This document shows positions 1 through 64,000 of a stretch of DNA of 64,000 nt, one piece after another; position 1 is the first letter of the stretch, and every line of letters begins with the position of its first letter. The stretch is from a virus, in IMG/VR virus record IMGVR_UViG_3300020576_007358; one strand, given 5' to 3'. Under the pieces are notes generated by a model. That model was not told the DNA's origin. It saw only the letters and a list, made by a program, of their open reading frames with translations, and did no database searches. The position numbers and the translations under genes are program-made.

Positions 1-1225
1 GAAGCTTAAGCTTATGATCGATCATGCTGCAGACGATGTCACGCTTGTTTTTCCATTCATCTTCGAAGATGTGAAGAAGGTTAACTTGATTCTCTTGAGC
101 CTTGATTGACTTGTTGTTGTGATAGATAGAAGACTTGTTTATGACGCTGTGCCAGTACAACCCATTGTACTCGATCCCAAAGCGATGTTCCGGAACGTAG
201 ATGTCAATTTCCAGACCTTGCAGAACGTCTCTCCTACAAGAATCAACAGCAACATTCTTGCTCTTTACGTACTGATATATTTCAGATTGCGCAACTGAAC
301 CAGTCGAATCGCAAGACCAGCATCTTCCAGATTGAAGGCGCCGCAGCGAGCTGTTCCATTCTTTTGAGCACCGCGTGCACTTCACGCTTATGTTAGGAAC
401 GTTGTCATTGATGTAGCAAGATGCATCAGGCATGTTCAACGCAAGCGTTCCATGAGATTCAACTCGCTCTTTTATCTCTTCGTACATCAATCTCTTTGAT
501 GCATCAAGCTTCTCTCTCAAGTTTTTATTTGAGTGCGTTATAGCAACTTTTGCTGCCATCGCAGCGATCTTTTCGCTGCTTGCTTTGTTGAGACCTTTTG
601 CCCAAGGAACCAACTGTCCTTCTTGAAACATCCTAGAAAGATTATCGCTAGTTGCTTTAAGCCTATCGTCTGTTTCTTTAGTGAGACCCTTCGACCAGAT
701 CTTTATCTTACCTTCTTCAAATGCTGCTTTTCTTCCGGCGCTTGTTGATGCTGCTCTTGATGCGACCCTTGGGTCTGTTTCTTTAGTGAGACCTTTCGCC
801 CAACCTGTCTTGCCTCTAAGCTTGTTCTTTCTGCTTTCTGAGATTTGAGCAGCTTTTTCTGGGGAGTATACTGCGTATATGTTCGAACTGTGTCCCTTCA
901 ACGTTCCGTTATAACCGCTGTGCCAAGATATCCAAGTTGTTTCTGCTCCGCAACCGCACTTACACTTGATCGGTCCGTTGTTGACCTTATCCCAAGCATC
1001 TTTTGTCGTCATAGAGTGCAATGACTTCATGTGTTCATCGAACGCAGTTAGCTTCTTTGTGGTGAATTCGCAGAACGGACAGTTAGCCGCAGCTGGATTC
1101 TTTCTAATAGCGTACATGCAAGCTCTGCATGGTTTGTTCTTCTTGGCTGCGCCTCGGGCTGCAGCATCATTTGCATGTTCTATGATTTGTGAACATGACG
1201 GACATGTTCGTTCATTAGGTTTCAT
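1..1225 (-). CDS. Homing endonuclease-like protein; 3' end runs off the window (partial). Architecture is N-terminal C2H2/CxxC zinc fingers, repeated WAKGLTKETD motifs, and a C-terminal Vsr/DUF559-like PD-(D/E)xK nuclease (GIEYNGLYWHS...HIFEDEW).
   Basis: Own reverse-complement translation. ATG at 1225 is preceded by an in-frame TAG, and the frame stays open to position 1. It is clearly paralogous to ORF 1891..3552. It is absent from the ORF track only because it is truncated by the window edge. Confidence 0.6.
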   Translation of the reverse strand, partial: MKPNERTCPSCSQIIEHANDAAARGAAKKNKPCRACMYAIRKNPAAANCPFCEFTTKKLTAFDEHMKSLHSMTTKDAWDKVNNGPIKCKCGCGAETTWISWHSGYNGTLKGHSSNIYAVYSPEKAAQISESRKNKLRGKTGWAKGLTKETDPRVASRAASTSAGRKAAFEEGKIKIWSKGLTKETDDRLKATSDNLSRMFQEGQLVPWAKGLNKASSEKIAAMAAKVAITHSNKNLREKLDASKRLMYEEIKERVESHGTLALNMPDASCYINDNVPNISVKCTRCSKEWNSSLRRLQSGRCWSCDSTGSVAQSEIYQYVKSKNVAVDSCRRDVLQGLEIDIYVPEHRFGIEYNGLYWHSVINKSSIYHNNKSIKAQENQVNLLHIFEDEWKNKRDIVCSMIDHKLKL

Positions 1226-1332
1226 CTATTCTATAGTATCCATTGCTCAACAGAAAGTAATTTTTAGTTTGTTCTAAAGTTATCCATGCTGATATTTGTT
1301 TAACACCAACAGTGGTTTAGAAGGAAAGTACC

Positions 1333-1824
1333 ATGCCAGCAGAGACACTAGACGTTTCGTCAATGATTCCGAACAAATTCGAGCCAAAGCGTAAAAATCG
1401 TTTCGTCTTGATGATCGAAGGTATCGATGCATACCTGATTAAAACAGCAGCTCGTCCGACGGTGACGACGGAAGAAGTTGAGATTCCATTCATCAACTCT
1501 CACCGTTACCTCGCCGGCAAGACGAAGTTTAACACGATCGCTGTGACTCTCTATGATCCGATCGCACCATCCGGCGCGCAGCAGGTCATGGAGTGGATCA
1601 GAACGTGCTACGAGAGCGTGTCCGGCCGTGCTGGTTACGCTGACTTCTACAAGAGAGATATCCAGCTTAAGATGTTGGATCCTGTCGGTACAGTAGTCGA
1701 ACTATGGGATGTCAAAGGTGCATTCTGCACTGAAGTCAACTTCGGTGAATTGACATATGAAGACGGTGGACCAGGAGAAATTTCTCTAACGATCAGAGCT
1801 GATAACTTCGTTCTACAGTTCTGA
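1333..1824 (+). CDS. Tail tube protein, T4 gp19-like.
   Basis: 163 aa, the same length as T4 gp19. Blocks align: FVLMIEGI vs FQVEISY, AARPTVTTEEVEIPFINS vs ATALPAGIVEKIPVGFMN, and a C-terminal W.V.G...E..L....E block. Confidence 0.55.
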   Translation: MPAETLDVSSMIPNKFEPKRKNRFVLMIEGIDAYLIKTAARPTVTTEEVEIPFINSHRYLAGKTKFNTIAVTLYDPIAPSGAQQVMEWIRTCYESVSGRAGYADFYKRDIQLKMLDPVGTVVELWDVKGAFCTEVNFGELTYEDGGPGEISLTIRADNFVLQF

Positions 1825-1890
1825 AGCACAGATTGCAACATCAGTTGCAACTGGAATATACAACTTTGTAGGCTGTGGTATAGTTATGCC

Positions 1891-62784: not shown

Positions 62785-62829
62785 CACGCTGTACATTAGC
62801 CCTGTAGGTGGGTATAGTCTTACCTAGAC

Positions 62830-63798
62830 ATGAAAGTCCTCATAACTGGCTACGCAGGGTTCATTGGTTCAAATTTGACAGCAGCATGCGTAGCTGCTGG
62901 TTGGACAGTTACTGGTGCTGATGATTTTTCTAATGGGCACGCAGAATTTTTGAGCGATTCAACTCTTCGAGAAATTCGTGAATTTAAGTGTGATTTTTCT
63001 GATGAAGCAGTTCTTCAGAAGATCAGGGACAAAGAGTTTGACGTTGTCATCCATCTTGCTGCTGTTCCAAGAGTTTCGTACTCTGTGGAGCATCCGTTTG
63101 AAACGAACGATGCAAACGTCACGAAGACGCTGAAGTTGCTGGAAGCATGCAGAGGAAACATCACACGGTTCGTCTTTGCTTCATCTTCTTCAGTGTACGG
63201 CGGCGCTCTTAAGCTACCCACGCATGAGAGCGAAGAGAAGAATCCCAAGTCGCCGTACGCGCTTCAGAAATCTATCATCGAAGATTACTTGACGTTGTAC
63301 AAGACGTTCTACGGTCTAGATTCTGTCTCCTTGAGGTTCTTCAACGTCTTTGGACCCAACGCGCTGGGTGGTTCTCCGTACGCAACTGCGCTCGCCGCGT
63401 GGTTGACGGCCATCAAGAAGGGTGAACCGCTTCGCTTCGATGGTGACGGCTCTCAATCAAGAGACTTGTGTTACGTTGACAACGTTGTTGATGCATGCAT
63501 GAAGGCCGCAACAGCGCAGCTTCCATCTGCTGAAGCGCATCGATTCAACGTAGCATGTGGAACTGAAGTATCCAACAACGACATCATTCTTTACCTTCTG
63601 AAGCGTTACGGCGGGTTCAAGCTCAACGTCGCGCCTACACGGCCAGGTGATGTGAAGCGAACGCTAGCAAACATCAGCGGTGCATCAGTTTACCTTGCGT
63701 ACAGCGTAAAAGTTCCTGTTTGGGAAGGTATTGCTCGCACATGCGATTGGTACGACAACAATTGGGACTGGGCAAAGAACCTAAAGCTTAACGTCTGA
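62830..63798 (+). CDS. NAD-dependent epimerase/dehydratase (UDP-sugar 4-epimerase-like).
   Basis: VLITGYAGFIGSNL and YALQKSIIE (YxxxK). Confidence 0.6.
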   Translation: MKVLITGYAGFIGSNLTAACVAAGWTVTGADDFSNGHAEFLSDSTLREIREFKCDFSDEAVLQKIRDKEFDVVIHLAAVPRVSYSVEHPFETNDANVTKTLKLLEACRGNITRFVFASSSSVYGGALKLPTHESEEKNPKSPYALQKSIIEDYLTLYKTFYGLDSVSLRFFNVFGPNALGGSPYATALAAWLTAIKKGEPLRFDGDGSQSRDLCYVDNVVDACMKAATAQLPSAEAHRFNVACGTEVSNNDIILYLLKRYGGFKLNVAPTRPGDVKRTLANISGASVYLAYSVKVPVWEGIARTCDWYDNNWDWAKNLKLNV

Positions 63799-63962
63799 TG
63801 AAATCAGATCATCATGTCCACTTTATGCTATGGGTGCTGTTGCTGTTCACAATCGTTCTGTCGATCGTTGACATTAGGGCACACAATGAGATGAAGGTGA
63901 GAATTCAAACGCTAGAAGACAAGGTGCTGGACCTGGAGATGAAGACGAATGATACGAATTGA
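63798..63962 (+). CDS. Hypothetical small membrane protein (54 aa; TM helix plus short coiled coil).
   Basis: Own translation. ATG overlaps the upstream stop (TGATG). Confidence 0.25.
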   Translation: MKSDHHVHFMLWVLLLFTIVLSIVDIRAHNEMKVRIQTLEDKVLDLEMKTNDTN

Positions 63963-64000
63963 GCATAGAGTCAGCGATGTTCGGAGTTGGTTCCGTGAGC

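Follow-up and report, generated by a model that had tools for sequence, protein, structure and literature searches.

The 64,000-nucleotide stretch of viral DNA analysed here in full (IMG/VR record IMGVR_UViG_3300020576_007358; hereafter, the window) belongs to an uncultivated jumbo phage and carried eleven intact endonuclease genes (c1 to c11), one endonuclease scar and three predicted split inteins, occupying about 17-19% of the sequence. Five of the endonucleases were Vsr-like (EDxHD), three were PD-(D/E)xK enzymes resembling the TnsA N-terminal domain (TnsA-N) and T7 endonuclease I, two were GIY-YIG enzymes and one had an Endo VII motif; the scar came from a twelfth mobile endonuclease gene, beside the eleven intact ones. 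The segment has very probably been colonised independently by eleven selfish homing endonuclease genes of these four catalytic classes, spreading by homing. The evidence consisted of nuclease domains, exact insertion boundaries, presence/absence polymorphism, mosaic identity, intact open reading frames (ORF) and selection. No new kind of system is seen: the window is an unusually dense and diverse case of phenomena already known, namely fractured genes and phages rich in endonucleases.

In the proposed process, two related phages would infect the same cell, and each endonuclease would cut the allele lacking it; the cut would fall in a conserved gene, at the insertion site of that endonuclease or close to it. 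Homologous recombination (the phage encodes RecA and a flap endonuclease) would then repair the break on the endonuclease-bearing genome as template, and because the template carries the endonuclease, the endonuclease gene and flanking DNA would be copied across. Three of the genes (c3, c4 and c6) lay between intein halves, so that dUTPase, a helicase and DnaE would be transcribed and translated as two pieces, with trans-splicing rescuing the three split host proteins. The other eight were free-standing between conserved genes, with c8 forming an in-frame fusion with a diverged copy of the gene that it displaced. The window was compared with about 280 related metagenomic loci (designated by L numbers) plus contigs with identical proteins, tiled over its length.

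All twelve nuclease ORFs listed in the initial annotation (c1 to c12) were present, and family-level profile searches supported a nuclease domain in each, though in altered classes. Their summed length as first annotated was 11,376 nt, or 17.8% of the window, in line with the coverage of roughly 17% given there. [quoted passage not shown] With the same four hidden Markov models (HMM), endonuclease ORFs numbered 1.56 per 10 kb in the window, 0.39 in 3.08 Mb of loci including the window, and 0.13 in a further 2.17 Mb of relatives' loci, so that relatives had 4 to 12 times fewer per kb, a comparison biased toward the window because the HMM were built from window sequences. The GC content of the endonucleases was 0.39, and that of the remaining sequence of the window 0.465; among the eleven mobile ORFs, nine fell between 0.35 and 0.41, c7 was at 0.412 and c1 at 0.447.

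The window shared with the seg (GIY-YIG) and mob (HNH) genes of T4 (PMC2988022) an intergenic location between conserved genes, absence from relatives, tightly packed or overlapping neighbours, signs of co-conversion of flanking sequence, hairpins predicted to sequester translation starts, and a large share of coding capacity (11% in T4, about 17% in the window). T4 has GIY-YIG and HNH enzymes only, whereas the window had mostly Vsr-like and PD-(D/E)xK enzymes plus the Endo VII-motif enzyme, had no intron-encoded endonucleases and had three that were intein-associated; the activities in the window are known from sequence only. Zeta crAss-like phages (PMC7886860) similarly have large uncultivated genomes with core genes infested by endonuclease-bearing mobile elements, in their case mostly group I introns and contiguous inteins, in contrast to the free-standing endonucleases and split inteins of the window.

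Nuclease classes and domain architecture

Seven ORFs had been called Vsr-like, and five were found to be so (c1, c2, c4, c6 and c7); the remaining two, c3 and c5, were PD-(D/E)xK enzymes. The five-member profile matched I-Bth0305I (3R3P, E = 5.6e-8) and Vsr (1VSR, E = 6.5e-4; 1CW0, E about 7e-4). PHROG "homing endonuclease" families matched c1, c2, c6 and c7, and the NCBIfam Vsr model TIGR00632 gave weak matches, below its cut-off, to c4 and c6; NCBIfam otherwise added little. Pairwise similarity formed the chain c1-c2-c6-c4-c7, and the motif D..[E/Q]xxGxYWH was common to all five. Equivalents of all four active-site residues of I-Bth0305I (E170, D196, H213 and D222) were present in c4, c6 and c7; in c7, Q replaced the conserved E of the IExxG strand. 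In c1 and c2, D and H were kept, E was shifted by 2 residues, and the last D (the D222 equivalent) was not evident. In the c2 family, K334 was invariant and E350, D351 and E352 nearly so.

ORF c1 (1..1225, minus strand) had its ATG at 1225 and ran off the left end of the window, divergently upstream of the tail-tube gene; a 98% identical copy was present in L112. ORF c2 (1891..3552, plus strand; PHROG 3339, 1.6e-72) comprised a zinc finger, NUMOD3-like repeats, the Vsr-like nuclease and a C-terminal GNAT fold. The tail-tube gene is the probable target region of both, and their dN/dS of 0.11 indicated purifying selection. ORF c4 (25355..26458, plus strand), with two C2H2 zinc fingers and NUMOD3, and c6 (51637..52596, plus strand) were assigned by the profile and lay inside the helicase and DnaE elements, respectively. 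ORF c7 (59458..60375, minus strand), assigned by the profile and PHROG, carried DUF7487 repeats and was antisense to its neighbours.

The C-terminal domain of c2 found nothing in a PDB sequence search and matched Pfam GNAT only at E = 0.039, and its fold was settled by structure prediction: an AlphaFold2 (AF2) model with a predicted local distance difference test score (pLDDT) of 88.8 had GNAT structures as its matches, phage Mu Mom being one of many and among the best, and not a distinct best hit. The c2 family comprised at least 462 clusters. Judging from the modelled fold, this conserved domain of the widespread c1/c2-type endonucleases might chemically mark or sense DNA; if true, they would be two-function enzymes and not plain nucleases. 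Like I-Bth0305I and the EDxHD family (PMC3239194; 3R3P), the Vsr-like enzymes of the window had modular DNA-binding repeats followed by a C-terminal Vsr-like catalytic domain, with D and H conserved, E likewise (though shifted by 2 residues in c1 and c2), and the final D present in c4, c6 and c7. They differed in being free-standing or intein-associated, I-Bth0305I being intron-encoded in recA, and c1 and c2 differed further in the added GNAT-fold domain and in having no clear D222 equivalent.

The DNA-binding region of c2 (2100-2400) was 81% identical to a relative that was otherwise 94-99% identical. At the site downstream of the tail tube (equivalent to 1825-3552 of the window), a c2-like N-terminal zinc-finger/NUMOD-like module was joined to other nuclease domains in L168 (10531-11454), L118 (10562-11470), L114 (10467-11360) and L123 (10571-11374). 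These domains were TnsA-like PD-ExK (Pfam 3.8e-12) or HNH-like; the latter assignment was by eye only and concerned the C-terminus of the endonucleases of L123 and L114, which had no Pfam match. Across different relatives, one DNA-binding module was thus seen with Vsr-like, TnsA-like or HNH-like nucleases, amounting to nuclease-domain swapping at a single genomic site. Within the window, DNA-binding modules were also common to different nuclease classes, and no two endonucleases were close paralogues, with 34% (c1 versus c2) as the highest identity.

ORFs c3 and c5 carried the motif PDF...E[L/I]K, as did c8 in similar form, and not the Vsr-type D..[E/D]xxGxYWH. The joint profile of c3, c5 and c8 matched T7 endonuclease I (1M0D, E = 2.6e-5), Pfam TnsA-like_N (PF08722) scored above its cut-off for c3 and c8, and the PD...ExK motifs were invariant in family alignments A2 and A5. 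The Vsr-like and PD-ExK profiles were unrelated (hhalign probability 0.7%). For c3 (22332..23267, plus strand), a TnsA-N/T7 endonuclease I-like enzyme with a C2H2-type zinc finger supported by Pfam, the joint profile and an AF2 model (nuclease domain pLDDT about 90), only PD-(D/E)xK folds were matched (TnsA, Hjc, VRR-NUC and Bax1), all at E above 1e-3; because the Foldseek search gave no match at E ≤ 1e-3, the model supports the fold class only. ORF c5 (49861..50622, plus strand), with a zinc ribbon and a DUF7487-type repeat, was assigned to this class by PHROG families (9019 and 29037) and the joint profile only.

ORF c8 (33350..34525, plus strand; Pfam, PHROG and joint profile) had been annotated as a PD-(D/E)xK enzyme with zinc fingers. 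This was correct for the nuclease and two zinc ribbons (amino acids 1 to about 268), and did not extend to residues of about 271-391, which formed a complete, divergent and AT-rich nucleotide pyrophosphohydrolase fused in frame. Directly downstream lay a relic of 30 codons from the resident pyrophosphohydrolase gene's 3' end (34522..34611, plus strand), 63-72% identical to the C-termini of relatives and closer to them than the copy in c8 itself; its stop codon was mutated to TTA and now leads into the HSP20 ORF. From its sequence, the locus looks like a cassette of an endonuclease and a linked allele that replaced most of the resident gene, the linked allele presumably being a copy of the replaced gene immune to cleavage.

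A second cassette of like design, a 428-aa in-frame fusion of a PD-(D/E)xK endonuclease and a divergent dCMP deaminase, was observed in L201 and L202 (13100-14386), where it replaced the 145-aa deaminase of L200 (13100-13537) exactly from start to stop codon between flanks 98-100% identical. This site corresponds to a position about 3 kb past the right end of the window.

The core fold and PD...ExK motif of c3, c5 and c8 were like those of T7 endonuclease I and the TnsA N-terminal domain (PMC3424549). Those proteins are a junction resolvase and a transposase subunit, whereas the domain in the window was joined to zinc fingers and NUMOD-like repeats and appears from its genomic distribution to behave as a site-specific mobile endonuclease. 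The only PD-(D/E)xK homing endonuclease outside the Vsr group listed in PMC3424549 is I-Ssp6803I, which belongs to a different family. We tentatively entertain the possibility, without favouring it, that the TnsA-N/T7 endonuclease I-like proteins form an uncharacterised homing family with two habits new to the literature, one of occupying the dUTPase intein and one of fusing to a linked allele, beside the two-function GNAT-bearing c1 and c2. F-CphI was considered as a T7 endonuclease I-like comparator for c3, c5 and c8 and was rejected, as PMC6083498 shows it to have an Endo VII motif, making it a comparator for c11.

ORF c11 (35335..36012, plus strand), annotated earlier as an HNH enzyme with NUMOD, turned out to be an Endo VII-motif enzyme (DHHRN/F-CphI-like), with Pfam Endonuclease_7 (PF02945, 1.1e-18) matching residues 148-224 of 225 and a C-terminus of the form CxxC..DHDH..R..CxxC-N (CALC..VDHDH..IRG..CMRCN). 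F-CphI targets psbA in cyanophages, and the "endonuclease clade" of F-CphI/DHHRN enzymes has the Endo VII motif at the C-terminus, unlike the resolvase clade (PMC6083498). ORF c11 had this C-terminal layout and was likewise free-standing in a phage genome, and differed from F-CphI in that its N-terminal region was longer and contained WxDPxFRxK repeats as well as additional Cys pairs.

Both ORFs described as GIY-YIG enzymes with NUMOD3 were GIY-YIG, and Pfam NUMOD3 was found in c9 only. ORF c9 (48966..49694, plus strand; PF01541, 5.4e-10; PF07460, 1.4e-14) overlapped the 3' end of an epimerase gene; its start is probably ATG at 48966 and not GTG at 49044, because with the latter the "IY" of the GIY motif would be lost. 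ORF c10 (61767..62555, plus strand) matched PF01541 above cut-off (4.3e-7) and had no Pfam NUMOD3 match at E ≤ 0.01, a NUMOD3-like stretch being recognised by eye (RGHQTEETKQRISSSL).

The twelfth ORF, c12 (43462..43989, plus strand; Pfam HNH/HNH_5), was an HNH protein as annotated, and did not have the features of a homing endonuclease: its identity was 53-72% across 19 loci, the relatives inspected had it in synteny, and its GC content was 0.528. By this conservation c12 is considered a core gene and not a mobile endonuclease gene. In L005, a PD-(D/E)xK endonuclease lay immediately upstream of c12.

Translational coupling of several endonucleases to flanking genes through ATGA or TGATG overlaps, as first described, was partly confirmed: ATGA was present at c2/g3549, the junction c8/g34522 was TTGA, and c3, c4 and c11 overlapped their neighbours by 14-23 nt. 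A 16-bp hairpin buried the start codon of c2 (dG = -24.2 kcal/mol, z = -4.1) and a 12-bp hairpin that of c3 (dG = -18.6 kcal/mol, z = -2.6), and a 9-bp hairpin covered a Shine-Dalgarno-like GGUGGA element upstream of the start codon of c6 (dG = -14.9 kcal/mol, z = -2.3); the other nine ORFs had no significant start-region hairpin. These hairpins resemble the endonuclease hairpins of PMC2677866 and of T4 and Aeh1 (PMC2988022), and probably keep endonuclease translation low on read-through transcripts. The heptamer ATAGTTA, located in or beside the hairpin loops of c2, c3 and c6, occurred at 1880, 22319, 51617 and 61756, at most 20 nt upstream of the starts of c2, c3, c6 and c10 (three nuclease classes); these were four of its five plus-strand copies in the window, the fifth being at 27685. 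It may be a promoter-like element. A clade-wide endonuclease promoter was unsupported, because endonuclease starts in more distant relatives showed no enrichment of ATAGTTA (3/111 vs. 82/2880).

Putative split inteins and empty alleles

The three split-intein elements had the same layout: an ORF with N-extein and N-intein, the endonuclease ORF, and an ORF with C-intein and C-extein. The dUTPase N-extein (21805..22038, plus strand; Pfam and exact junction) was followed by an element at 22039..23352 (plus strand) made up of an N-intein of 95 aa (22039-22326), c3 and a C-intein of 36 aa (23245-23352). The element in the DnaB-like helicase gene (25225..26879, plus strand) consisted of an N-intein of 47 aa (25225-25365), c4 and a C-intein of 148 aa (26436-26879), and that in the DnaE PHP domain (51315..52705, plus strand) of an N-intein of 101 aa, c6 and a C-intein of at most 53 aa. 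All three inteins had Cys1 and a terminal HN followed by C or S, and their inferred boundaries were the points at which contiguous alleles of relatives resumed. The fused dUTPase and DnaE inteins scored above the Pfam Intein_splicing cut-off (39.7 and 65.4 bits, respectively). The helicase intein was inserted after the Walker A GTGK, with an N-intein starting CVHRDTYIQV and a C-intein that carried block B (CSPEH) and ended VLSHN/S; its best solved-structure match was VidaL (6VGV, E = 0.0024). Protein trans-splicing presumably reunites the two halves of each host protein (dUTPase, helicase and DnaE), because the hosts are essential and the arrangement persists in diverged relatives.

Empty alleles matched these boundaries. 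Positions 22039-23352 were exactly absent from the closest relative, which was 94-99% identical, the junction being GCID-S-DYRG when empty and GCID[..]C-DYRG when filled (an example of the empty allele is CCTGGCTGCATTGACTCAGATTACAGAGGC). The helicase gene was contiguous and intein-less at the c4 site in about 15 relatives, and L045 had the same fractured layout with a 43% identical endonuclease. DnaE was contiguous across the c6 site in all eight related loci. In other large phage contigs, the dUTPase split intein at this site likewise contained c3 homologues (49% and 42% identity), and the c3 lineage comprised only 16 protein clusters in 5.8 billion. This lineage may be dedicated to the dUTPase split intein, a host and nuclease type outside the original fractured-gene catalogue.

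That catalogue (Dassa et al. 2009, PMC2677866) listed gp41, DnaE, NrdA/J, IMPDH, ligase and terminase as hosts, with GIY-YIG or Vsr-like endonucleases. The window agreed with it in having free-standing endonuclease genes placed between the two parts of split inteins, in replication and nucleotide-metabolism hosts in phage-like metagenomic DNA (helicase and DnaE being hosts in both), in the Vsr-like endonucleases and in the hairpins at endonuclease starts. It departed from it in the dUTPase host and its third nuclease type (c3, PD-(D/E)xK), in a helicase intein split after only 47 residues, and in the availability of the whole genomic context and of empty alleles in near-identical strains. The fractured genes reported from metagenomes in 2009 thereby gain the context of a defined jumbo-phage genome, in which a single stretch of 64 kb contains three of them.

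RecA was fractured in two strains with 94-96% identity to the window, L192 and L196 (1-2484): an N-intein of 17 aa (CVSPETKLTVRRREINT) preceded a Vsr-like endonuclease of 304 aa, after which came a C-intein of about 137 aa with the ending LLSHN/T. The allele in the window (recA, at about 21271-21278) was the empty one. The RecA intein scored below the Pfam cut-off. Inteins with a natural atypical split are described as rare, and as useful in the labelling of proteins (PMC11766414). The helicase (47/148 aa) and RecA (17/about 137 aa) inteins resembled AceL-TerL and GOS-TerL (PMC11766414) in pairing a short N-fragment with a long C-fragment in a natural atypical split, and differed in their hosts and in being predicted inteins, both with scores below the Pfam cut-off. 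Candidate reagents from the window include the three putative split inteins, one with an atypical short N-fragment (and the 17-residue one in the sister strains), and eleven endonucleases with targets guessable from empty alleles.

Polymorphism, loss and competing explanations

Endonuclease gain, loss and decay were directly readable in this compact natural system: strains with 94-100% identity provided both filled and empty alleles of at least four elements, and there was one fresh deletion scar. Eleven of the twelve ORFs were present sporadically, and endonuclease-less alleles, the mapping of which had been suggested initially, were found for them at the same sites; the exception was c12. 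Even strains with flanks 94-100% identical lacked c3, c7 and c10. Positions 61514-62544 (c10) were missing from L201 and L202 between flanks 97-100% identical; at that site the flanking genes abutted in L005 and a Vsr-like endonuclease was present in L001. The c7 site held two small unrelated non-endonuclease ORFs in strain L200, and its flanking genes were adjacent in L008. The epimerase and DnaE genes were 308 nt apart in L003, with neither c5 nor c9 between them; c5 was absent from all eight DnaE loci, and c9 from L003, L005 and L008, with a 37% identical endonuclease at its site in L001. About 25 relatives had the pyrophosphohydrolase part only at the c8 site, and none of 131 relatives had an endonuclease at the c11 site. 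Around the tail-tube gene, all four occupancy states were represented in 51 relatives, which comprised six with no insert, 17 with an endonuclease downstream only, six with one on both sides, and the rest with other combinations; 21 of the 51 had an endonuclease upstream (c1 site).

It is unlikely that the nucleases are mainly domesticated phage functions, kept for their benefit to the phage, such as weapons against co-infecting competitors or satellites, recombination and repair enzymes, or resolvases. Apart from c12, no endonuclease ORF was positionally conserved across the clade, several were polymorphic between strains 94-100% identical, their low GC content marked most of them as foreign, and one had already decayed to a scar. 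Domestication would fit with the purifying selection on c1 and c2, with the c3 and c4 lineages each having stayed at one site across deep divergence, with the genuine conservation of c12, and with the marker exclusion by which T4 endonucleases favour their carrier (PMC2988022). The T7 endonuclease I and Endo VII folds are resolvase folds; the C-terminal Endo VII motif of c11, however, is that of the "endonuclease" clade and not of the resolvase clade (PMC6083498).

The scar (5762..5858, plus strand) formed the tail of the Nudix ORF, to which codons 5-19 and the last 16 codons of a Vsr-type endonuclease gene like c7 had become joined. It resulted from an 895-nt deletion between CAACTG repeats and a 1-nt frameshift, and the gene was intact in the closest relative (L013, 4059-5063). 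By this comparison, the scar directly documents the phase of the endonuclease life cycle in which genes are lost. That most of the ORFs are likewise inactive relics, once mobile and now drifting toward loss, is quite unlikely. Such decay would agree with the scar, the missing D222 equivalent of c1 and c2, the Q for E replacement in c7 and the c8 frame running into its neighbour without a stop codon. All eleven mobile frames, however, were intact over 225-553 codons and contained their catalytic motifs (D..E..YWH, PD..ExK, GIY..YIG and DHDH), dN/dS was 0.11, and presence/absence differences and 100% identical tracts between close strains implied recent movement.

Identity to the close relative was mosaic, with a 4.2-kb block of 100% identity around c4 and a patch of 87-88% just 5' of the dUTPase element against a background of about 96%; as sequence patterns, these blocks are possible gene-conversion tracts. 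An artefact of chimeric metagenome assembly, joining fragments of different phages, is extremely unlikely as the source of the density, even with a sequence that comes from metagenomes only and cultured relatives no closer than about 30% DnaE identity. Independent contigs of other samples were 100% identical over 6.9 kb (L193) and 8 kb (L203), the closest relative (IMGVR_UViG_3300033121_002020), a 104-kb IMG/VR contig, was collinear with 1-29645 at 94-99% identity, 101-kb and 314-kb contigs were collinear with 51815-64000 except for the c10 element, and gene order was as in many relatives. Domestication, decay and misassembly were each weaker as explanations than independent colonisation by selfish homing endonuclease genes.

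Several observations weigh against independent colonisation by homing. Cleavage, homing and trans-splicing, like translational control, are predicted from sequence for every protein, and c1 and c2 had no obvious last catalytic Asp of I-Bth0305I. The DnaB intein scored 24.4 bits, below the Pfam cut-off. Absence from a distant relative fits gain or loss alike, and for c8 and c11 the comparison was with distant relatives only, as searches aimed at close strains gave no record with the exact g35999 protein and, for ThyX, the same strain only, and a metagenome scan gave nothing above 64% identity. The window may also be a local hot spot; the 7 kb past its right end contained no endonuclease in L200 and one in L201 and L202.

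Genomic context and further observations

Almost all genes of the window were on the plus strand. Proteins identical to those of the window were also encoded on a 313,755-nt contig, the longest of 14 metagenomic contigs with the exact c3 protein; a contig from SRR32380203 was 100% identical to 19332-26267. Relatives in IMG/VR numbered in the hundreds. Among cultured phages, megablast of 11 kb of structural genes gave no match and DnaE tblastn reached about 30% identity at best, so that there was no cultured relative. An Rfam search of the window gave no intron (no group I or II model match) and no other RNA family, and no tRNA genes were found in it.

The T4 gp19-like tail-tube gene (1333-1824, plus strand; Pfam Phage_T4_gp19) had a median identity of 83% across 91 loci. 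By Pfam, the window further encoded a baseplate protein and the Nudix protein, in addition to very large structural proteins; the replication proteins were a family A polymerase fragment, an HD protein, RecA, the flap endonuclease, the DnaB-like helicase and the DnaE-type polymerase, and those of nucleotide metabolism were dUTPase, ribonucleotide reductase, ThyX, thymidylate kinase and the nucleotide pyrophosphohydrolase. HSP20, an RlaP-like nucleotidyltransferase, polynucleotide kinase-phosphatase, RNA ligase, a DNA methylase and two epimerases were also recognised.

Identity to the closest relative was only 62-79% at 13200-13800, within a 1055-aa structural protein, possibly a host-range region. 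The ORF at 19128-19334 encoded 68 aa in the window compared with 164 aa in the closest relative, which had about 735 nt of extra sequence at window position 19318 that was not endonuclease-like. The ORF at 17255-18475 (406 aa) contained the palm and fingers of a family A DNA polymerase only (Pfam positions 112-357), and may be a split or truncated polymerase alongside the DnaE-type polymerase. In L034 and L057, the ribonucleotide reductase gene had an insert of about 1.1 kb near residue 290, and in L005-L007 the DnaE C-extein ORF had a 1.3-kb insert at residue 542/543; these inserts are probably further inteins or endonucleases.

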